64,000 bases of DNA from a virus (IMGVR_UViG_3300020460_001010:30641-94640); one strand, 5' to 3'; shown: positions 45,983 through 63,309, numbered from the stretch's first letter. Notes: a model not told the origin generated them from the letters alone. Numbers and translations: made by a program.

Positions 45983-48085
45983 ATGGAAAATAAAAAAGAA
46001 TCTTCAAAAAACAAGTCGGATAAATCTAATAGTTTATCATCCATTATTAAACGGGAGAACAATGAGGCAGTTTCCGACTATCGTGTACAAAATTGGACAG
46101 GTACATTTTGGGAGTACCTTGAACTTGTGGAGGACAATCCGAAGATTGTTCGGAACGCATATCAACGTTTGTTTGATATGGTAACTTCACATGGAATTGA
46201 GGAAATTGAATATTGCAAGAGAAAGTATGTAAAGTATAATTTTTTCAAAGATCGGGGTGACATCTCCATTTATGGGTTAGAAGAAAATCTAATGGAACTG
46301 ATGGATACACTCAAAAGTGCAAGTAGACATTATGGACCCGAACGACGTGTATTGCTTCTACACGGTCCTGTGGGAAGTAGTAAGTCAACCATCGTCACGG
46401 CATTGAAGAAAGGACTTGAGGAATATTCACAAACCAACGAGGGTGCGTTGTATAGTTTTAGTTGGAAGGTTGTTGATAGTGAGGGTAATGAGCAAATCGT
46501 ACCCTGTCCCATGAATGAAGAACCATTGAAGTTGCTACCAGATGACGTTAGGTCGGAGATTATAGGCAAATTGAATGCTTCTATAAAAGAGTCAGACTAT
46601 CAAATTAGATTGGATGGTTCGTTGAATCCTGTAAATGAGTTTTACTATAAGAAGTTGATGGAGCAGTATGGTGGGGATTATCGCAAGGTTCTGGACCATG
46701 TAGTGGTTCGTAGAGTTATAGTATCCGAAAAGAATCGGGTGGGTATTGGAACTTTTCAACCCAAAGACGAGAAGTCTCAAGACGCAACTGAACTTACAGG
46801 TGACATCAACTACCGCAAGTTGGCAGAGTACGGAAGTGAAAGTGACCCACGGGCGTTTGACTTTGACGGAGAGTTTTTGGTATCAAATCGTGGACTCATT
46901 GAGTTTCAAGAAATCCTTAAGTTGCAGACCGAATTCTTGTATGACCTACTTGGTGCAACCCAAGAGCATCGTGTTAAACCACGTCGTTTCAACCAAGTAC
47001 CTATTGACGAAGTTATTCTTGGACATACGAATAATGCTGAATTTGAAAAGTTGAAGAACAACAAGTTCATGGAAGCATTGCGTGATAGAACCATCAAGGT
47101 GGACATTCCATATTTGCTGAAGATTTCAGAAGAACAAAAGATTTATGATCACTTCTATAACAACAAGTCGGTCAACAAGCACATTGCACCACACACTACG
47201 TATTTGGCTGCATTGTTCTCTGTTGTAAGTCGTTTGGAAGAAAGTTCCAAACACGACATGAGCATCATTCAAAAGGCAAAACTTTACAATGGTCAGAGTG
47301 TTCATGGATTTACTGACGAACACGTCAAGGAAATGCAAGAAGAGTCACCAAACGAAGGATTGTATGGTGGAGTTTCTGCACGATTCATACAGAACCAGTT
47401 TTCCAATGCAATCGTTAATCCAAGAATGGGTGCAAAGAGTTTGAATCCGTTTATGTTGTTTGCACAAATCCGTGAAGGATTGAAAAGTTATAGTGGATTT
47501 CAAAGTGAAGACCAAAAGAAGACCATGATGGAACGTCTTGAACTTGTAGAAAAGGAATACGATAGAATTGTGAAACGAGAAGTACAACAAGCACTTAGTA
47601 GCAGTGAAGAAGCAATAAAGGCACTCTGCACAAACTACATTGATAACATCGTGGCATACATTCAAGACGAAAAGGTTAAGAACCCCGTCACCGGTAAGGA
47701 TGAGCAAGCAAACGAACAACTTATGCGTAGCATTGAAGAAAAGATTGGAATCTCCGAAGGAATGAAGGATGATTTCCGCAGAGAAATCATGAACTACATG
47801 GGTGGCCTTGCCGCCAAGGGCAAAGAGTTTAAGTATGATTCCAACGAGCAACTTTACAAGGCACTTGAAAAGAAGTTGTTTGAAGATACCAAGGATAGCA
47901 TCAAGTTGTCTGCTCTTGCTCAAGATACCGCAACTGTTGTTGATAAGGAACTTCTTGAAAAGATTGATGCGTTGAAGCAACGTCTTATCACTTCGTTTGG
48001 ATACGATGAAGATAGTGCATCGGATGTTCTCACCTATGTAGGTAGTATTTTTGCCCGTGGTGACGTTGACGATGACGAAGATTAA
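45983..48085 (+). CDS. prkA: PrkA/YeaG family AAA+ serine protein kinase/ATPase
   Basis: RNAYQR, Walker A LLHGPVGSSKS, CPMNEEPL, PKDEKSQD, SESDPRAF, NRGLIEFQE, EALRDR and GVSARF. Confidence 0.93.
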   Translation: MENKKESSKNKSDKSNSLSSIIKRENNEAVSDYRVQNWTGTFWEYLELVEDNPKIVRNAYQRLFDMVTSHGIEEIEYCKRKYVKYNFFKDRGDISIYGLEENLMELMDTLKSASRHYGPERRVLLLHGPVGSSKSTIVTALKKGLEEYSQTNEGALYSFSWKVVDSEGNEQIVPCPMNEEPLKLLPDDVRSEIIGKLNASIKESDYQIRLDGSLNPVNEFYYKKLMEQYGGDYRKVLDHVVVRRVIVSEKNRVGIGTFQPKDEKSQDATELTGDINYRKLAEYGSESDPRAFDFDGEFLVSNRGLIEFQEILKLQTEFLYDLLGATQEHRVKPRRFNQVPIDEVILGHTNNAEFEKLKNNKFMEALRDRTIKVDIPYLLKISEEQKIYDHFYNNKSVNKHIAPHTTYLAALFSVVSRLEESSKHDMSIIQKAKLYNGQSVHGFTDEHVKEMQEESPNEGLYGGVSARFIQNQFSNAIVNPRMGAKSLNPFMLFAQIREGLKSYSGFQSEDQKKTMMERLELVEKEYDRIVKREVQQALSSSEEAIKALCTNYIDNIVAYIQDEKVKNPVTGKDEQANEQLMRSIEEKIGISEGMKDDFRREIMNYMGGLAAKGKEFKYDSNEQLYKALEKKLFEDTKDSIKLSALAQDTATVVDKELLEKIDALKQRLITSFGYDEDSASDVLTYVGSIFARGDVDDDED

Positions 48086-48106
48086 TAATCAACGGACATT
48101 CACAGT

Positions 48107-49255
48107 ATGCCATCACGCAGAGTCAGAGAAGACCACAAAGAATATAGAGACATCGTCAAAGGAAATGTTGACGAAAAACTCAAGAAGCACATAAAAGGTG
48201 GTCAACGAATAACACGAAGAGGAAAAGACTTTGTTGTTGTTCGTGTTCCACATGTAGAACTTCCAAGTTTTCGTTACGGAAAACCTTCCAATGGAGAGGG
48301 AGTCGGTAACGGAGAAGTTGGAGTGGGTGATGAAGTAGGTGATGGACCTCCACAGGATGGAAGTGGCAATGAACCTGGAGAGGGTGGAAGTGGTGATGGT
48401 GAACACGAAATAGATGTTGGAATTAGCATGGATGCGTATTTTGACATGATAGGTGATGAACTTAAGTTACCAAATCTACAACCAAAAGAAAATGGTGATT
48501 TGGTGAAGGAAAAGATTAAGTGGAATCGCATCGCAAAGGTAGGCAACAATAGTTTGCTTCACAAAAGACGAACACTCAAGAATGCGTTTAAACGGATCAT
48601 CTCCGTAGGTGAGTTTGATCCATTGGACGTATCCAATGTATATCCGATTAAGGAAGACAAAGAATTTAGAAGTTGGAGTTCGGTTGAAGTACCTGATACA
48701 AACGCTGCTATCTTTTTTGTTGCGGACATATCCGCAAGTATGGATACTGAAAAACGTTCGTTAATTCGTGAACTCTGTTGGTATTTGGAAAACTGGATTG
48801 AGAGATTCTACCAAGAGACCCAGAAGAAATATATAGTACATGATCATGTTGCACAAGAAGTAGACCAAGAGAAATTTTATAAATATAGGAGTGGGGGAGG
48901 AACGCAAATCAGCAGTGCGTTTGAACTTGTAAATGATGTTATAGAAAAGGCATTTCCTCTCAATGAATGGAATATCTATGTATTTTACTTGAGTGATGGA
49001 GAAAATTTTGGTGATGACAACGAACTCTGCGTGGAACATCTTAAGAAGATGCAAACTTATACCAACTTGATTGGGATTACGGAAGTCAAGGCAGTTCGTA
49101 GTTGGGCAACATTTTTACCTCACATTCGGAAACGGATTGAAGATAAGACATTAGATTTTAACAAGATTTCAACTGCATCTATGGAAAGTCAGAGTGATGT
49201 GCTAAAAACACTTCAGTCGTTACTAACACCTGAGGATGAAGAAGTACCTTTTTGA
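48107..49255 (+). CDS. yeaH: YeaH/YhbH (DUF444) vWA-domain protein
   Basis: Gly-rich linker, LKLPNL, MIDAS elements DISASM, SGGGTQIS and LSDGEN; WNIY. Confidence 0.9.
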   Translation: MPSRRVREDHKEYRDIVKGNVDEKLKKHIKGGQRITRRGKDFVVVRVPHVELPSFRYGKPSNGEGVGNGEVGVGDEVGDGPPQDGSGNEPGEGGSGDGEHEIDVGISMDAYFDMIGDELKLPNLQPKENGDLVKEKIKWNRIAKVGNNSLLHKRRTLKNAFKRIISVGEFDPLDVSNVYPIKEDKEFRSWSSVEVPDTNAAIFFVADISASMDTEKRSLIRELCWYLENWIERFYQETQKKYIVHDHVAQEVDQEKFYKYRSGGGTQISSAFELVNDVIEKAFPLNEWNIYVFYLSDGENFGDDNELCVEHLKKMQTYTNLIGITEVKAVRSWATFLPHIRKRIEDKTLDFNKISTASMESQSDVLKTLQSLLTPEDEEVPF

Positions 49256-49257
49256 AT

Positions 49258-50823
49258 ATGGGAATTGCGTGTGAAATTGATAGTCTGAACTATGGAGTTT
49301 GTCCAGAGTTGGCTGCCCTTATACCAGATGTACTGAAGGCGTGTTACGACAATGGACTTGATCCATATCCGTTGTGTATTGAAGAATTTGATGCAGACGA
49401 AATTGTAGAGATTGCGGCGTATGGTGGATTTCCTGTTCGTTATCCTCATTTTAATTTCGGACAACAATTTGAGCAGTTACATCATCAGTATCATTCTGGT
49501 ATGGGTAAGATTTACGAAATGGTTGTAAATACTGATCCAACTTATATGTACCTTCAACGAAACAATCCTATCGTTGATAATCTTACTGTTGTTGCACACG
49601 CAACTGCACATAGTGATTTCTTTAAGAACAACATTATGTTTAAGCATACGAATCGTAACATGATGAATGTGATGGCAAATCATAGTGATAAGATTCGTAT
49701 GTACATGGATCGTTTTGGTCGCAAAAAAGTGAAGGACTTTTTGAATGCAGCTCTTGCTATTGATAGTTTGATTGACCCTTCTTTGTGTTATCGTGAAAGT
49801 AATCTGAAAAAAGCATCCAAGTTTAATTTTGAAGACAGAAAACCAAGAGAGCACGTATCTCGGTTGAACACCAAGGAGTATATGGAGAAGTATGTTAATC
49901 CATCCCACTATATTGAGAAACAACGGAGGGAACGTGAAGAAAGACAAAAGTTAGCAGAAAATAAATTTCCTCTTAACCCAGAACGAGATATTATGTTGAT
50001 GATTATTAACCATGTTCGTCTTGAACCTTGGCAACAAAATATTCTTAGTATGATTCGTGATGAGTCTATTTACTATCGTCCACAGGGAATGACCAAGGTT
50101 CTCAATGAGGGTTGGGCAAGTTATTGGGACTCCTATATAATGGCAAGTTGCAACTTTGCAGGAGACGAAGGAATTTTTGATTATGCGAAGCACCACGCCG
50201 GAGTTCTCGGTGGTAAATATAACATGAACAATCCATATAAACTTGGAAACACTTTATTACGTGACATTGAAGACCGTTGGAATAAAGGCAAGTTTGGTAA
50301 AGAGTATGAAAATTGCGACAACGGAGAAGAAAAAAGATATTGGAATAAAAATCTTGGTCTTGGACGAGAGAAACTTTATGAGGTTCGTGAGAACTACAAC
50401 GATGTTACATTTTTAAATGAATTTTTTACCAAAGACTTTTGCGAAAAGCATAAATATTTCGAATATGCACTTGATAAGGATACCAATAAATATGTGGTGG
50501 TTAGCAAGGACTATAAGAAAATAAAAAGTAAACTTATAGACCGTCATGTTAATATGGGAATGCCTGTAATTTACATGGAGAACATGAAATACAAAAACAA
50601 TGAAATTTTACTTAGACATGAATTTGAAGGTAGACCCCTTGATGTAAAATACGCAACCGGAACAATGGCATATTTACATGAGATTATCAAAAAACCTATT
50701 AATATTTTGACCAGTGATGTTCTTGAGGAGGGATATGGTAGGGAGAAAGAAACGGTAGAAGTTGAGGTTAGGTATCGTTACAATAATGGTGAGATGAAAC
50801 GATACGAGGGTAGTAAAGTTTAA
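49258..50823 (+). CDS. spoVR: SpoVR/YcgB family protein
   Basis: GFPVRYPH, KIYEMVVNTDP, VAHATAHSDFFKNN, TKVLNEGWASYW and NPYKLG. An alternative TTG start lies at 49252. Confidence 0.92.
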   Translation: MGIACEIDSLNYGVCPELAALIPDVLKACYDNGLDPYPLCIEEFDADEIVEIAAYGGFPVRYPHFNFGQQFEQLHHQYHSGMGKIYEMVVNTDPTYMYLQRNNPIVDNLTVVAHATAHSDFFKNNIMFKHTNRNMMNVMANHSDKIRMYMDRFGRKKVKDFLNAALAIDSLIDPSLCYRESNLKKASKFNFEDRKPREHVSRLNTKEYMEKYVNPSHYIEKQRREREERQKLAENKFPLNPERDIMLMIINHVRLEPWQQNILSMIRDESIYYRPQGMTKVLNEGWASYWDSYIMASCNFAGDEGIFDYAKHHAGVLGGKYNMNNPYKLGNTLLRDIEDRWNKGKFGKEYENCDNGEEKRYWNKNLGLGREKLYEVRENYNDVTFLNEFFTKDFCEKHKYFEYALDKDTNKYVVVSKDYKKIKSKLIDRHVNMGMPVIYMENMKYKNNEILLRHEFEGRPLDVKYATGTMAYLHEIIKKPINILTSDVLEEGYGREKETVEVEVRYRYNNGEMKRYEGSKV

Positions 50824-50826
50824 CAA

Positions 50827-51609
50827 GTGTATTCAGAAAACGAAATATACTGCATGGACAACTTGAAGTTTCTATGCGAATTGGATTCTAATTATATCAA
50901 TTTGATTTATTGTGATATATTGTATGGAACTGGTAAGAAGTTTAAGGATTATGATGACCTTCCACCGGAAAAGAGTGTAATTGAAAATCACTACATTCCT
51001 CGTCTAAGGGAAATGCGTAGAGTGCTGACGGATACGGGAACGATCTGTTTGCAAATGGATTTGCGTATTGTTCATTGGATAAGAAATATAATGGACGATA
51101 TATTTGGTTATGAAAATTTTAGAAATCAAATCGTGGTAAAGTTTAATATTGGTGGTCGAGGTAAACGAGAGTTTGCAAAGAAACATGATTATATTATTGT
51201 CTATACCAAATCCGATGAGTTTGTATTCAATGACATGGACATCCGAGTACCATACAAGTCGGTTATCAGTAAGAAGCAAGATAGACCAAATATCACCGAA
51301 GAAAAATTAAAAATTGGGACGATACCTACAAATGTTTGGGATGACATTCCGTCTGGATTAAAAGTCAAGAAAGCAACTGACTATTATAGTGAAAAACATC
51401 CGAAGATTTTGGAAAGAATTATCAAGGCAAGCAGTAACGAAGGTGACTTGGTAGGTGACTTTTATTGCGGAAGTGGAACTACATTTGCGGTTGCCAAGTC
51501 GTTGAATCGTAGGTTCATCGGGTGCGATAAAAACGAGGATGCAGTACAAATTTCAAGGGACAGAATTAATGAGAAAATAAGTCAATTTTTTTCCTTGAAA
51601 ACTGCATAA
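50827..51609 (+). CDS. N4-C/N6-A DNA methyltransferase (beta class)
   Basis: LIYCDILY at the DPPY position, FRNQIV, TNVW, EKHPKILERII and SAM-binding DFYCGSGTT; GTG start. Confidence 0.85.
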   Translation: MYSENEIYCMDNLKFLCELDSNYINLIYCDILYGTGKKFKDYDDLPPEKSVIENHYIPRLREMRRVLTDTGTICLQMDLRIVHWIRNIMDDIFGYENFRNQIVVKFNIGGRGKREFAKKHDYIIVYTKSDEFVFNDMDIRVPYKSVISKKQDRPNITEEKLKIGTIPTNVWDDIPSGLKVKKATDYYSEKHPKILERIIKASSNEGDLVGDFYCGSGTTFAVAKSLNRRFIGCDKNEDAVQISRDRINEKISQFFSLKTA

Positions 51610-52918: not shown

Positions 52919-54079
52919 ATGGCAAAGAAAAAAGAAGTTGTAACTACCAGTAAATCTGATGACTTGGCAAATGTACTTGCTGAGAGTTTGAACAAAGCAT
53001 ATAAAGACGAAGGCAAGGTTGCCTTTTTCTTGAGTGAGGGTGATGATCCATCACTTATCACCGATTGGATTTCAACGGGTAGTAGTCTTCTTGACTTGGC
53101 AATTTCCAACCGACCTGAGGGGGGAATCCCTGCCGGTAGGATTACGGAACTCACGGGACTGGAGCAGAGTGGAAAGAGTCTACTTTCAGGTCACATTCTT
53201 GCGGAAACACAAAAGAAAGGTGGAGTCGCAGTTTTGATTGATACGGAAACGAGTGTATCAGCAGAATACTTAACGGCAATTGGAGTGGATACGGAGAAAC
53301 TTCTTTATATTCATGTGGATACTGTTGAAGATATTTTTGCAACGATTGATAACATAATTGCAACTATTAGAAAGTCTGACAAGGATAGACTTGTTACGAT
53401 TGTAACTGATAGTGTCTCGGCCGCATCAACCAAAGTTGAGATGGCAACCGATTATAGCAAGGACGGATATGCAACAACCAAAGCAATCCTTATCAGCAAG
53501 GCAATGCGTAAGTTGACTTCCACAATTGGACGTCAACGAATTGCTCTTGTGTTTACTAATCAACTTCGTCAGAAGATGGGAGTTATGTTTGGTGATCCGT
53601 GGACAACTAGTGGTGGTAAGGCACTTGCCTTTCATGCAAGTGTCAGAGTTCGTCTGAAGAATCTTGGACAGATTAAACAAGGCACTACTACTGAGGTAAT
53701 TGGAAACAAGTGCGAAGCAACCATTGTTAAGAACCGAATGGGTCCACCCCAACGCAAAGCTGCGTTTGAAATTTATTTCAATCGGGGTGTGGATGATATT
53801 GGGAGTTGGATAACTACTCTCAAGACTCATAAGATTTTTAAGCAAGGTGGTGCATATTATTCGTATACTGATGATAAGGGAAATGACCATAAATTTATGG
53901 CAAAAGAATTTCCCGACTTGCTCAAGGATGAAGATCTTAAAAATGAACTTTACCAAAAGATTTGCGACAAGGTTGTAATGGAATATTCCTCTGCAAATAG
54001 TGTCATAGATGAAGATGTAGAGTTTGAAGACAACGATGAAATTGCCGAAAAAGAATTGGCAACCGTTGAAGATGAGTGA
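52919..54079 (+). CDS. recA: RecA/UvsX recombinase
   Basis: ISTGSSLLD, Walker A GLEQSGKS, IDTE, DSV, FTNQLR, GGKALAFHASVR and VKNR. Confidence 0.93.
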   Translation: MAKKKEVVTTSKSDDLANVLAESLNKAYKDEGKVAFFLSEGDDPSLITDWISTGSSLLDLAISNRPEGGIPAGRITELTGLEQSGKSLLSGHILAETQKKGGVAVLIDTETSVSAEYLTAIGVDTEKLLYIHVDTVEDIFATIDNIIATIRKSDKDRLVTIVTDSVSAASTKVEMATDYSKDGYATTKAILISKAMRKLTSTIGRQRIALVFTNQLRQKMGVMFGDPWTTSGGKALAFHASVRVRLKNLGQIKQGTTTEVIGNKCEATIVKNRMGPPQRKAAFEIYFNRGVDDIGSWITTLKTHKIFKQGGAYYSYTDDKGNDHKFMAKEFPDLLKDEDLKNELYQKICDKVVMEYSSANSVIDEDVEFEDNDEIAEKELATVEDE

Positions 54080-59209: not shown

Positions 59210-59233
59210 CATGCCGAAACTGCACTTGGCATG
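59210..59233 (+). other. intergenic hairpin after nrdA
   Basis: CATGCCGA...TTGGCATG inverted repeat with no strong U-tract. Confidence 0.4.
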
Positions 59234-59273
59234 ATATATATTAGTATTAACTAATTTAACGAGGTATATGCTA

Positions 59274-60272
59274 ATGAAACTATTTGTAATCGCAATTTTA
59301 AGTATGGCAGTGACTATGGTTACTGTAAGTGGTGAAGGAAAAACAATGAGAGAAGTTGCGGATCATTTACAAGACATCTCAGTTACCATCAAGTCTGAGG
59401 GTAGATATAGCAAATCAGAAGGTTCTGGTGCTATGATTATCCGTGAGGTGGATGGACAAAAGGTAACGTTCGTTTGGACAGCCGCACACGTAATTGATAA
59501 CCTTCGTTCAGTTAGAACTGTTATCAATGAAAAAGGTCAACCAGTTAAGTTGGTAGAATTTGAAGACCCCAAGATTGTTAAGGAACTTGTTGAGAAAGGT
59601 CGTAGAGTCGGTGAAATGAAGATGGATGCGAGAGTTATCAAGTATTCAGACGCAGATGACGGAGAAGACTTGGCACTTCTTATGGTTCGTGCAAGAGATT
59701 ATGCAAAGAGTGGTGCTAAGTTTAAGATACAATCTGCTAAGAAGGACGATGACAACATTGTACCAATCGGAACTCGTTTGTTTCACGTAGGGTCTTTGCT
59801 TGGTCAGATGGGTGCAAACTCAATGACAACCGGTATTATTTCACAAGTAGGCAGAACTCTGGGAAAAGTTGAATATGACCAAACTACCGTTACTGCATTT
59901 CCAGGCAGTTCCGGAGGAGGTGTATATCTAACCGATGGCCGTTACATGGGTATGTTGGTAAGAGGTGCGGGTGAAGGTTTTAATCTGATTGTTCCAGTTC
60001 GTAGAATGGTACGTTGGGCAGAGAAGAATGACATTATGTGGGCAATTGACCCAAGTGTTGAAATGCCATCTCTCGATGAGATTAACGAAATTCCAGTAGA
60101 GGATGCGGGTGTCGGAGGAAAGAAAAAGTCCGATGGTGACGATGATAAGTCACTTCGTTCACTTCCGTATCTTATTAAAGTCACTCCAATCAACGAAACA
60201 CTTGATGCGAGTGAGGAGTTGGATGTTCGTCCCACAGATGGAACAATTTCCCCAAAACTCGAGCTTAGATAA
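59274..60272 (+). CDS. secreted trypsin-like (S1) serine protease
   Basis: Signal peptide MKLFVIAILSMAVTMVTVSG; triad motifs TAAHV, DLALL and PGSSGGG. GAGGT spacing favours ATG 59274 over 59268. Confidence 0.88.
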   Translation: MKLFVIAILSMAVTMVTVSGEGKTMREVADHLQDISVTIKSEGRYSKSEGSGAMIIREVDGQKVTFVWTAAHVIDNLRSVRTVINEKGQPVKLVEFEDPKIVKELVEKGRRVGEMKMDARVIKYSDADDGEDLALLMVRARDYAKSGAKFKIQSAKKDDDNIVPIGTRLFHVGSLLGQMGANSMTTGIISQVGRTLGKVEYDQTTVTAFPGSSGGGVYLTDGRYMGMLVRGAGEGFNLIVPVRRMVRWAEKNDIMWAIDPSVEMPSLDEINEIPVEDAGVGGKKKSDGDDDKSLRSLPYLIKVTPINETLDASEELDVRPTDGTISPKLELR

Positions 60273-60818
60273 TTGGATTATCTGAGATTTACGCAAAAGG
60301 TTATATCAACAATAATATTATTTATATCGTCCTCGGTGCTATCGTGTGCCGGGGACGATGGGTTTATAAAGGAAACGGATTCCAAAGAACCGAAGAAAGT
60401 TGAGGACACTCCAAAGACTTCGGATGATAAACAAGAATCCAAGGTGGATTGGACAATTGTAGTTGACCCACGACTACAAGCATCGTATGAGAAGTACGAA
60501 CGAGAGAAACGCATTCGTGCACAATTCTCAAAAGACATTGCAAGATTTGCCACATTGAAAAAGAAAACTTTTGACATGGTTGCATTGATTCATAAGTTTG
60601 ACTTGAAAGGTCCTCATTATGATCCGACAAAGTTTGATGAACTCACAAAATGGATGAGGATATATGAGAAGGAGATTTTGATTGCAATGGACAATTATGA
60701 TGCAGCCGCCTACGTTTTCTTTTTTGAAGAATTTGCAAAGCTCACAATACAACGAGCGGGTATGATAAATCCTGACTGCAAACTTAAAGATTGCGAATGT
60801 CGCAATTATAAAGATTAA
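60273..60818 (+). CDS. putative exported protein or lipoprotein
   Basis: Hydrophobic ISTIILFISSSVLS-C; C-terminal CKLKDCEC; the TTG start is uncertain. Confidence 0.55.
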   Translation: MDYLRFTQKVISTIILFISSSVLSCAGDDGFIKETDSKEPKKVEDTPKTSDDKQESKVDWTIVVDPRLQASYEKYEREKRIRAQFSKDIARFATLKKKTFDMVALIHKFDLKGPHYDPTKFDELTKWMRIYEKEILIAMDNYDAAAYVFFFEEFAKLTIQRAGMINPDCKLKDCECRNYKD

Positions 60819-60835
60819 ATTTTATATTTATAAAA

Positions 60836-60934
60836 ATGGAATGTTTGAAAAAAATAATCTGTAAAATTAAATGTTTTTTTGTAAAATGTTGCAAAGACAA
60901 TAGTTGTGAGTGTGCTTGTCACGACAAGAAATAA
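60836..60934 (+). CDS. 32-aa Cys-rich peptide (8 Cys, 1 His)
   Basis: MECLKKIICKIKCFFVKCCKDNSCECACHDKK; ATG lies 4 nt after TATATTTAT (60823-60831). Confidence 0.6.
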   Translation: MECLKKIICKIKCFFVKCCKDNSCECACHDKK

Positions 60935-60943
60935 TTTAATTAC

Positions 60944-60972
60944 TTTACACATACAGTAAATTGTGGTATATT
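60944..60972 (+). promoter_or_regulatory. sigma70-type promoter inside the repeat (second copy at 61863-61891)
   Basis: TTTACA, N17, TATATT, with a TGn extended -10. Confidence 0.6.
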
Positions 60973-61041
60973 ACTTCAATTAATAAAGTTGAAGGAATAG
61001 ACCGATGAAATTTCAAGGAACTGCTATTTGGTGAAGAGGAC

Positions 61042-61716
61042 ATGAGTGAGGAACATACATGGCTTCGGAAATCTGCATGGAATGAGAAGGATGAATACTA
61101 TACTCCCTCCATTTTAGTCAAGGCAATTATTCCCTATCTTAAATGCAATCCTAATACCATTGACCTACCTCACAAAGACATTACTATTTGGTGTCCCTTT
61201 GATACCGAAAATAGTGAGTTTGTTTTGTGCTTACAAGAAGCAGGTTTCAATGTGATTTACAGTCATTTGTGGACGGGACAGGACTTCTTTGAGTATGAAC
61301 CCGAAGAAGAATATCATTACATCGTTTCTAACCCACCATTCACACTCAAATTGAAAGTATTTGAAAGATTATTTGAGTTAGAAAGACCATTTGCTATGGT
61401 CATGGGGCTCCCAATTCTGAACTACCAGGAAGTCGGCTCGGTTTTCCTCAATCATCAACAAAATGACCGCAATCTTCAATTACTGATAGTGGACAAGAAA
61501 GTTTCCTTCGATGGGAATACGGCTTCGTTCAACAATTCGTATTTTTGTTGGAATGTACTTGAAAACGACATTGTATTCCACCATTTAGAGAACAACAATT
61601 CTCGGAAACACTATGTTCCAAGTAGAATGTTTCAAGATGCAGAAAAGGAGACAAAGACAACACCCTTGACACCAAGATCTCTGGTAACCGATACTTTCTT
61701 CCGGAAGGTTGAATGA
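61042..61716 (+). CDS. putative N6-adenine methyltransferase
   Basis: DEYYTP, IWCPFD, GQDFF and IVSNPPF; GAGGA RBS. Confidence 0.8.
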   Translation: MSEEHTWLRKSAWNEKDEYYTPSILVKAIIPYLKCNPNTIDLPHKDITIWCPFDTENSEFVLCLQEAGFNVIYSHLWTGQDFFEYEPEEEYHYIVSNPPFTLKLKVFERLFELERPFAMVMGLPILNYQEVGSVFLNHQQNDRNLQLLIVDKKVSFDGNTASFNNSYFCWNVLENDIVFHHLENNNSRKHYVPSRMFQDAEKETKTTPLTPRSLVTDTFFRKVE

Positions 61717-61853
61717 TAATAGGAGAAATCCTTTCTTTGTTCACTCCATCCGGAATGGAATGTTTGAAAAAAATAATCTGTAAAATTAAATGTTTTTTTG
61801 TAAAATGTTGCAAAGACAATAGTTGTGAGTGTGCTTGTCACGACAAGAAATAA
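61713..61853 (+). CDS. second copy of the Cys-rich peptide with a 14-aa N-terminal extension
   Basis: ATGA overlap with the methyltransferase stop; reads MIIGEILSLFTPSG-MECLKK...; internal ATG at 61755. Confidence 0.45.
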   Translation: MIIGEILSLFTPSGMECLKKIICKIKCFFVKCCKDNSCECACHDKK

Positions 61854-61892
61854 TTTAATTACTTTACACATACAGTAAATTGTGGTATATTA
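61754..61892 (+). repeat. 139-bp direct repeat, copy 2
   Basis: Identical to 60835-60973. Confidence 0.95.
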
Positions 61893-61919
61893 TTTTCCTA
61901 AATATAAGGAGAACTATAT

Positions 61920-62270
61920 ATGAAAAAATTATTGATATTACTATGTTTGGCCACACTTGTATCGTGTGGGATTAAAGATAAGTTTTTAAATTCAAGTACA
62001 GGTGGTTTAGGAGTACCGAAGCAACCAAGTGAAGTCGTGGTACTTGATGATAATGGAACGACACAGAACTCAGATGGGTTACCCACTGAAATTGCCGGCC
62101 ACAAAGTTACTTATTCGGATATGAACACTACAACTGACGATGCATCTGAAGCAAGTCCCGATGAGGTCGAGACTTCGTTTAATTGGTATTATTTGATTTT
62201 GGTCGGCATTCTTTTGATTGTTGCTTTTTTGGTTTATAGGTTAAAAAAGCAGAACATGATTTCGGAGTGA
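61920..62270 (+). CDS. lipoprotein with a C-terminal transmembrane helix (u-spanin-like topology)
   Basis: AAGGAG RBS; signal MKKLLILLCLATLVS-C; C-terminal WYYLILVGILLIVAFLVY-RLKK. Confidence 0.75.
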   Translation: MKKLLILLCLATLVSCGIKDKFLNSSTGGLGVPKQPSEVVVLDDNGTTQNSDGLPTEIAGHKVTYSDMNTTTDDASEASPDEVETSFNWYYLILVGILLIVAFLVYRLKKQNMISE

Positions 62271-62301
62271 ATTAAAGTAACTGGGGGTTATATATATTAG
62301 T

Positions 62302-63309
62302 ATGAAAACGGGTGAACTACTGGGAAAAGAACTGGAAGGTGTGAATCAAATTCTTCCGCACAAGCATAAGTGGGCATGGGACTTGTACGAACAAGGTGTA
62401 AAAAATAACTGGGTACCAACTGACGTACCCATGACAAAGGATGTCCAGCATTGGAAGTCTCCACCTGAAGATTCGTTGAGTGAGGATGAACGATTGGTTA
62501 TCAAGAGATGTCTTGGTTTCTTTGCCGGAAGTGAAAGTTTGGTGGCAAACAATTTGATGACATTATCCAAATATATTACCGACCCAGAATGTAGACAATA
62601 TATGGCACGACAAATGTATGAAGAGTGTTTACACAATCATACAATTGTTTACATCTGCGATAGTTTGGATTTGGATGTTGGTGAAGTATATGAGGCATAT
62701 CAAACGGTACCATCCATTAAGGCAAAGGATGATTTCCTCATGGAAGTTACAGGTGGTTTAAATGAATCAGAGATAAACACCTCCACACAAAAAGGAAGAA
62801 AGGAACTTTACAAGGCCGCATTCACATATTGGGTTGTGTGTGAGGGAACATTCTTTTTCAGTGGTTTCGCAATGTTGCTTGCATTGAGTGACAAGATTCC
62901 TGGTATCGCAGAACAAATTCAATATACACTTCGTGATGAAAGTATTCACATTAAGTTTGGAACTACTTTACTCAACAAACTCCGTGAGCAGTATCCTGAT
63001 ATTATGACCGATAAGTTTGAAACGGAACTTACCGAGGTTTTGAAACGAGCAGTTGACCTTGAAATCGAATATGCACAAGACGTATTACCAAGAGGAATTT
63101 TGGGGTTAAACTCTGAAATGTTTGTGGATTATATGCAGTTCATCGCAAACCGCAGATTGGAAAATTTGGATATGAAGTTTCGTTATGATAGTGATACGAA
63201 TCCGTTTCCGTGGTTAAGTGAGGTTATTGATATTCGTAAGCAGAAGAACTTTTTTGAAACAAGAGTCATTGATTATCAAGATGAATCGGCATTAGTTGAC
63301 GATTTTTAA
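62302..63309 (+). CDS. nrdB: ribonucleotide reductase beta subunit with class Ic-like signatures
   Basis: NNWVPTDV, FFAGSESLV, EECLH, EGTFFFSGF, RDESIH and KNFFETRVIDY. Confidence 0.95.
   Translation: MKTGELLGKELEGVNQILPHKHKWAWDLYEQGVKNNWVPTDVPMTKDVQHWKSPPEDSLSEDERLVIKRCLGFFAGSESLVANNLMTLSKYITDPECRQYMARQMYEECLHNHTIVYICDSLDLDVGEVYEAYQTVPSIKAKDDFLMEVTGGLNESEINTSTQKGRKELYKAAFTYWVVCEGTFFFSGFAMLLALSDKIPGIAEQIQYTLRDESIHIKFGTTLLNKLREQYPDIMTDKFETELTEVLKRAVDLEIEYAQDVLPRGILGLNSEMFVDYMQFIANRRLENLDMKFRYDSDTNPFPWLSEVIDIRKQKNFFETRVIDYQDESALVDDF

Follow-up and report, generated by a model that had tools for sequence, protein, structure and literature searches.

Probable recent gain of an orphan adenine methyltransferase gene by duplication-insertion in a large uncultured marine phage

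The Methyltransferase Locus and Its Direct Repeats

A small DNA methyltransferase gene is located between two perfect copies of a 139-bp direct repeat in the viral contig IMGVR_UViG_3300020460_001010, and it is the structure and likely origin of this arrangement that are considered here. The window, by which is meant the whole stretch of 64,000 nucleotides that was analysed (30641-94640 of the contig), represents the final 64 kb of a 94,640-bp record; coordinates are those of the window unless another contig is named, and the genes and elements described at the locus all lie on its plus strand. The first copy of the repeat (60835-60973) is identical to the second (61754-61892) at 139 of 139 positions and the match ends on either side; a repeat finder scored the pair as 151 nt at 97%. 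An exact match this long cannot have arisen by chance, and no further copy exists in the full record. Between them lie 780 bp (60974-61753), and repeat and insert together constitute a unit of 919 bp.

The repeat begins 1 nt 5' of the ATG (60836) of a mini-gene encoding a Cys-rich product of 32 amino acids (60836-60934 in the first copy, where its native upstream context is retained), and it ends 1 nt 3' of the -10 hexamer of a promoter sequence, TTTACA-N17-TATATT, with a TG at the extended -10 position. Consensus scans placed this promoter at 60944-60972, where it now faces the methyltransferase, and again at 61863-61891, its native place upstream of a lipoprotein-type gene. Within the insert, an open reading frame (ORF) of nine codons (61005-61034) stops 7 nt before the ATG of the methyltransferase gene; it is probably either a remnant of the gene's former surroundings or a small upstream ORF. 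The methyltransferase gene itself (61042-61716) encodes 224 amino acids with an NPPF motif at residues 97-100. An ATG at 61713 overlaps its stop codon in the form ATGA, and 14 codons of the insert then enter the second copy of the mini-gene in frame, giving a fused ORF of 46 amino acids (61713-61853). An earlier reading of this DNA, made from the sequence only, had described each of these structural elements correctly: the 139-bp repeats with their two ends, the 780-bp insert, the NPPF ORF, the 9-codon ORF and the 14 codons.

A gene flanked by direct repeats might be taken for a transposon or a site-specific element, with the repeat as its target-site duplication or attachment site. However, no transposase or recombinase domain was recognized in the insert or its neighbours, which are genes of replication and nucleotide metabolism, and neither tyrosine nor serine recombinases (PF00589 and PF00239, searched with positive controls) occur in the 94.6-kb record, which covers approximately 47% of the genome. 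The earlier statement that neither an integrase nor a transposase lies nearby is thereby confirmed. Terminal inverted repeats occur at no more than chance level. Moreover, 139 bp far exceeds the target duplications made by enzymes, and the duplications that accompany homologous insertions vary, at 21-28 bp. An origin of this kind is thus barely credible.

The Empty Site in Related Phages

Relatives of the phage were found through the gene of 181 amino acids that lies upstream of the repeat and through nrdB, and the 22 distinct viral contigs so obtained have nrdB genes that are 84-93% identical. All 22 share a single gene order: nrdA, a trypsin-like protease gene, the 181-amino acid gene, the mini-gene, the promoter, the lipoprotein-type gene and nrdB. 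In every one of them the mini-gene and promoter are single-copy, and the methyltransferase is missing at the site. From the stop of the 181-amino acid gene to the start of nrdB the relatives have about 540 bp as opposed to 1484 bp in the window, a difference that corresponds essentially to the 919-bp unit. With the site empty in 22 relatives, it follows that the window carries a lineage-specific gain of 919 bp. The methyltransferase gene was not found in the five largest relative records (39-161 kb) by a search that does find it in the window's own record. Among cultured phages, no DNA match was obtained and nrdB is at most 43% identical. Whether relatives hold other cargo at the insertion site had been raised earlier as a question; none does among the 22, and hence the site is not a hot spot.

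The two elements that make up the repeat are conserved within the clade. A homologue of the mini-gene, of 31-34 amino acids and with the core KIKCFF..CC..C.C.CH, is present in all 19 relatives examined, which argues for the mini-gene being a real gene. Across 19 relatives, TTTAC and TGnTATATT are invariant and the 17-nt spacer is free to vary; judged by this pattern, the sigma-70-like extended -10 promoter appears to behave like a functional site. Since the mini-gene and promoter are both conserved and single-copy in the relatives, the 139-bp repeat is recognized as duplicated target sequence and not as part of a mobile element. The invariance of the -35 and extended -10 elements also bears out the earlier statement that the insert and the lipoprotein gene each receive the same promoter.

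Directly upstream of the first copy of the mini-gene is a conserved ATATTTAT motif, which the second copy does not have. In 19 relatives the motif, in the form ATATTTAT(A/T)A, stands 2-6 nt 5' of the mini-gene ATG (window 60819-60835), and no Shine-Dalgarno sequence is found there; its role could be that of a translation signal or of a promoter from which a near-leaderless transcript starts.

The presence of a promoter in both flanking repeats brings to mind PeSL, of which about 50 dispersed promoter and stem-loop motifs occur in the hyperplastic regions of T4-type phages (PMC2839356), and modular shuffling by homologous exchange between such pre-existing cassettes would be another route to the structure. 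Its left joint immediately follows the -10 box, the position to which PeSL crossovers have been mapped, and in some homologous methyltransferase loci (L022) successive genes carry repeated translation-initiation regions. However, the promoter is not dispersed, being present twice in the 94.6-kb record, which covers about half of the genome, and once per relative, and the region is not hyperplastic, given one gene order in 22 relatives. No stable stem-loop was detected, the fold of 60925-60990 having an energy of -5.1 kcal/mol (z=0.20 versus shuffles), and no known RNA family was matched in 60200-62400. The repeat, furthermore, includes a whole coding gene. Shuffling of this type is accordingly regarded as very unlikely. 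The structure resembles PeSL cassettes and mini-circles (PMC2839356, PMC4122927) only in outline. Common to both are a gene between direct repeats that hold a sigma-70-like early promoter, a joint just after the -10 box, and the expectation that the recombination system of the phage would excise the unit as a small circle. Here, in contrast, the repeat would have arisen by duplication at insertion and not from pre-existing copies, its complete mini-gene is conserved, and the phage is not T4-like, encoding RecA, a DnaB-type helicase and a PolA-type polymerase.

Both immediate neighbours of the site keep their positions in the relatives. The 181-amino acid gene on the left (60273-60818) has counterparts with 36-70% amino acid identity in the 22 relatives, and searches of Pfam and PHROG returned no match for it. 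The gene on the right (61920-62270) encodes 116 amino acids, with a lipoprotein-type signal (an LVSC lipobox, read off the sequence) and a C-terminal hydrophobic helix, and its counterparts share 34-48% identity.

The Inserted Gene and Its Foreign Origin

The product of the inserted gene was identified as a gamma-class N6-adenine methyltransferase by its match to PHROG 799, 'DNA methyltransferase' (E=1.1e-30), and by structure prediction. The AlphaFold2 model, based on 38 homologues, has a predicted local distance difference test score (pLDDT) of 86.5 and a predicted template modelling (TM) score (pTM) of 0.83, and its disorder is limited to the last 20 or so residues. With Foldseek, a probability of 1.00 was returned to CamA, PacII M, HsdM, M.BseCI and M.TaqI, at query-normalised TM scores of approximately 0.45-0.50, and the fold is that of a Rossmann-type S-adenosylmethionine-dependent enzyme. 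N97, P98 and P99 of the NPPF motif are invariant across the 38 homologues. No match was obtained in NCBIfam or to the restriction-modification methyltransferase models of PADLOC. The family comprises more than 2,500 relatives, nearly all unnamed, and the best matches in cultured phages, at about 39% identity, are Campylobacter phage genes annotated as putative adenine methyltransferases. The exact 224-amino acid protein is recorded on four contigs (NCBI, JGI, ENA and Tara), the longest of 495,094 bp, which may be copies of one assembly. Another protein, P0001, is 95% identical.

Orphan DNA adenine methyltransferases are used by phages against restriction. The present enzyme is like them in its Rossmann fold, in the position of NPPF after the cofactor-binding motifs, in being phage-borne and in having no partner endonuclease. 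It differs in its very small size, with a core of about 200 amino acids and a target-recognition part that is minimal at most, and in belonging to a family with no characterised member as far as databases show. Another DNA methyltransferase is encoded in the window at 50827-51609 (Pfam N6_N4_Mtase, E=9e-43; PADLOC type II methyltransferase models also match), and the inserted gene would add a second specificity beside it.

The core of the gene is of foreign origin. Its closest DNA relatives, L042 and L044 from marine metagenomes, are 92.4% identical over 61047-61651 only, that is, from about codon 2 to about codon 204, and this is the only part of the insert that matches other phage contigs. 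The genes that flank the closest methyltransferase loci are unrelated to the window's phage. Recent gene capture, as proposed by the sequence-only reading, is thus supported by the empty site in 22 relatives, the absence of the gene from five large relative records and the occurrence of its nearest relatives in unrelated phages. Of the codon differences from L042, 35 are synonymous and 10 non-synonymous, and the gene is therefore taken to be under purifying selection. The comparison of codon usage between insert and flanks that had also been proposed did not discriminate: the guanine-plus-cytosine (GC) content is 38.8% in both the gene and the window, and neither composition nor codon position 3 sets the gene apart.

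Beyond the core, the insert matches none of the sequences compared. The tail of the protein, approximately residues 205-224, is not common to the closest homologues and is the part that is disordered in the model. The edges of the insert, 60974-61046 (73 bp) and 61652-61753 (102 bp), gave nothing above chance in blastn-short searches against the genome and about 120 loci, and exact pattern scans of viral contigs with the left joint and the 14-codon stretch were likewise without match. The edges are read as remnants of a former, unsampled neighbourhood. That the left edge might be a diverged copy of the 5' region of the lipoprotein gene, left by a longer and older duplication, was considered and rejected, the alignment scores being 12-14 when random gene starts in the genome reach 21; the 9-codon ORF likewise resembles that region no more than by chance.

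With regard to the right edge, the closest loci have the small methyltransferase followed, through an ATGA overlap, by an N6_N4 methyltransferase of 353 amino acids, and an overlap of -4 with some downstream gene is found in 10 of the 19 closest homologous loci. That this overlap is usual in donor-like loci supports the view that the downstream gene of the donor began with the ATG at 61713. The 14 foreign codons themselves gave no meaningful match with short-peptide tblastn; a likeness between them and the start of N6_N4 methyltransferases (G-[DE]-x-L-x-x-[LF]) is no more than an impression.

Origin of the Structure

It is likely that a large (approximately 200 kb) uncultured marine phage recently acquired an orphan N6-adenine DNA methyltransferase gene by horizontal transfer, a gain specific to its lineage, and that this took place through one duplication-insertion with two illegitimate joints. 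A 780-bp foreign fragment, holding the methyltransferase gene and scraps of its old neighbours, would have been joined into the nrdA-nrdB block by template switching or end joining between replicating copies of the genome, for example two sister copies in a concatemer. The left joint would have formed 1 nt past the -10 box of the resident promoter; the right joint, 139 bp upstream of the left one, would have formed 1 nt before the ATG of the resident mini-gene. The joints thus overlap on the recipient, and the 139 bp of overlap would have become duplicated. No resident gene or signal would be lost in such an event, and products of this kind would survive selection because the resident functions are kept.

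Two mechanisms had been put forward in the sequence-only reading, of which duplication-insertion is retained as the more economical. The other invokes a 919-bp circle, made up of repeat and insert and akin to PeSL mini-circles, that would integrate in the Campbell manner through homologous recombination at the repeat. A single crossover would then yield exactly the repeat-insert-repeat layout. The phage has genes for RecA, for a gp32-like protein and for a 5'-3' exonuclease, and mini-circles between promoter repeats are known from RB49 and phi1, where the crossovers fall between -10 box and ATG (PMC2839356). However, such a circle must already hold the repeat, which is clade-specific (single-copy in the 22 relatives) and absent from 108 methyltransferase loci. 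It could thus come only from a genome already so structured, and the first event would be left unexplained; a circle from any sampled relative is excluded, the two copies being identical at 139 of 139 positions when the relatives' repeats differ by at least 12%. As the origin of the structure the circle is therefore unlikely, and it could be a later intermediate only.

It might further be supposed that the arrangement is an artefact of assembly or collapsed heterogeneity, an empty-site genome having been joined to other reads or a tandem array being hidden. The record does derive from a metagenome, an exact repeat of 139 bp is near common k-mer and read lengths, and the four contig records of the exact protein may be one assembly copied. 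On the other hand, both repeat-insert joints are present in the assembled sequence, and hence in the underlying reads, and the alternatives to a linear arrangement, a 919-bp circle (which has no replication function) or a tandem array, could themselves arise only out of the linear form. Nothing else in the insert belongs to the phage clade, the right joint is in frame, and the left joint sets an intact gene behind a promoter. An artefact is, on balance, quite improbable.

A number of points weigh against the duplication-insertion that is preferred. The true donor was not found among the loci searched, so that microhomology cannot be read at the window's two joints. Identical repeat copies fit a very recent event, but they would fit gene conversion or assembly-collapsed variants as well, and the linear repeat-insert-repeat form is that given by the assembled contig. 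As to the enzyme, the threshold of the Pfam model N6_Mtase (PF02384) was missed, at 12.7 bits compared to a cut-off of 20.4, the tRNA N6-methyladenosine enzyme TrmM is also a structural neighbour, and some records call homologues tRNA methyltransferases. DNA is thus a putative substrate, suggested by the phage context and by the adjacent N6_N4 DNA methyltransferases in donor-like loci.

Phages are reportedly augmented by extra genes termed morons, according to the moron-accretion model of Hendrix and colleagues. The gene described here shares with morons its location between genes that are adjacent in related phages, its horizontal acquisition and its probable usefulness under some host conditions. 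Unlike morons, it has neither a promoter nor a terminator of its own, borrowing a resident promoter through the 139-bp target duplication, and its base composition is not deviant. The event is thus a gain of the moron type, a clean but fairly ordinary gain of a gene by a phage and not a new kind of system.

Comparable Insertions in Other Phages

A precedent is provided by the marine metagenome contig L057, where a homologous methyltransferase gene has been inserted with a resident gene on either side. The target sequence duplicated there is 21 bp long and furnishes both the ATG and the stop codon of the inserted gene. In L201, a relative of L057, the site is empty, and one of the joints shows a microhomology of 4 bp, ATGG. 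A third contig, L200, with flanks 95% identical to those of L057, carries a different methyltransferase, of the N6_N4 type, at the same site. The L057 insertion is thus like that of the window in the methyltransferase family, the target duplication and the existence of an empty-site relative; the two differ in that the duplication in L057 is of 21 bp and gives start and stop codons, whereas that in the window is of 139 bp and gives a promoter. The coordinates of this site in the other lineage are L057:1404-2090, L200:1358-2500 and L201:2340-2510, and it has the appearance of a hot spot for methyltransferases, adjacent to a gene whose C-terminus resembles C5-methyltransferases.

Exact direct repeats of 21-28 bp tightly bracket homologues of the gene at four further loci, L022:5945-6900, L107:22-655, L095:3014-3620 and L072:4935-5590. 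In each case the repeat is local sequence, either a ribosome-binding site with its ATG or the tail of the upstream gene, and in L022 the same translation-initiation region of 24-28 bp occurs in three successive copies. No repeats bracket the gene in the six closest methyltransferase loci. Overall, bracketing repeats of at least 20 bp were found at 4 of 88 methyltransferase loci compared with 5 of 389 other ORFs in the same loci, an excess that is not significant (odds ratio 3.7, p=0.065), and they are therefore seen as a general mode of gene gain in these phages and not a property of the methyltransferase.

Expression, Function, and Stability

The first copy of the promoter would transcribe the 9-codon ORF, the methyltransferase gene and then, by ATGA coupling, the extended mini-protein of 46 amino acids, and the second copy would still drive the lipoprotein gene and nrdB. 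No terminator-like site was found on the plus strand in 60800-61900; read-through from the first promoter is thus probable, and the lipoprotein gene and nrdB are likely served by both copies. The second copy of the mini-gene probably depends on the ATGA coupling, as it is without the upstream ATATTTAT motif. Since the promoter is of the host sigma-70 type and serves genes of nucleotide metabolism, expression is probably early, and such timing would probably suit protective methylation of replicating phage DNA. The enzyme most likely methylates the phage DNA, shielding it from a restriction system of the host.

With respect to stability, the phage RecA invoked by the sequence-only reading is indeed encoded in the window, at 52919-54079, and further genes nearby include those for a DnaB-type helicase, a 5'-3' exonuclease and a gp32-like protein, as well as nrdA and nrdB. 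A perfect direct repeat of 139 bp in a RecA-encoding phage should recombine, and the product would be the exact ancestral site. In the absence of selection for the cassette, its loss is therefore to be expected. Excision or amplification driven by RecA, as envisaged earlier, is plausible; the notion of a switchable anti-restriction cassette is speculation, plausible as passive instability, with nothing to indicate regulation. A broader proposition would be that the repeat-insert-repeat is a reversible cassette, which RecA excises, circularises or amplifies such that populations shift with the restriction systems of their hosts, and that small methyltransferases spread more widely in marine phages by duplication-insertion, borrowing the promoter, start or stop of the target (139 bp here, and 21-28 bp in L057, L022 and L107). 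Taken as a whole, this proposition is considered rather doubtful.

Further Features of the Phage

Other observations concern the remainder of the phage and its relatives. A second motif, TATATATATTAGTAT, occurs at 59224-59250 and 62280-62306, just upstream of the protease gene and of nrdB, respectively, and also at about 45490; the first of these copies directly follows a terminator-like hairpin (59210-59233), and the motif may represent a phage-specific promoter class. At 45983-50823, three adjacent genes match PrkA (AAA and kinase C-domain), DUF444 (YeaH-like) and SpoVR, a bacterial stress triad situated in the replication module. Both the record (G000) and four of its five relatives G001-G005 are labelled 'provirus' in IMG/VR, and the gene content is that of a large phage of the lytic type. 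CheckV estimates of completeness, 47% for 94.6 kb and 80% for 161 kb, correspond to a genome of approximately 200 kb.

In two more distant relatives, L147 and L148:83-3769, the match to nrdA is split in two by about 1.2 kb, which suggests an intein, an intron or the insertion of a homing endonuclease. In L125:1-3457, the matches to nrdA and to the protease gene are broken into several pieces shifted against one another, reflecting frameshifts or sequencing errors.

Implications

The locus provides an uncommonly complete set of traces of one gene gain: the site is seen empty in 22 relatives and filled in the window, both joints are preserved, and remnants of the gene's former neighbourhood persist in the insert. 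It illustrates how a target duplication can hand a resident promoter to a foreign gene that has none, without damage to resident genes and in a manner that is exactly reversible. Together with the 21-bp case of L057, it suggests target duplication of variable length as a mark of illegitimate gene insertion in phages, and a systematic search for such duplications could allow gene gains to be counted and dated. The methyltransferase itself belongs to a widespread, uncharacterised family of miniature adenine methyltransferases that is worth testing for a role in counter-defence.

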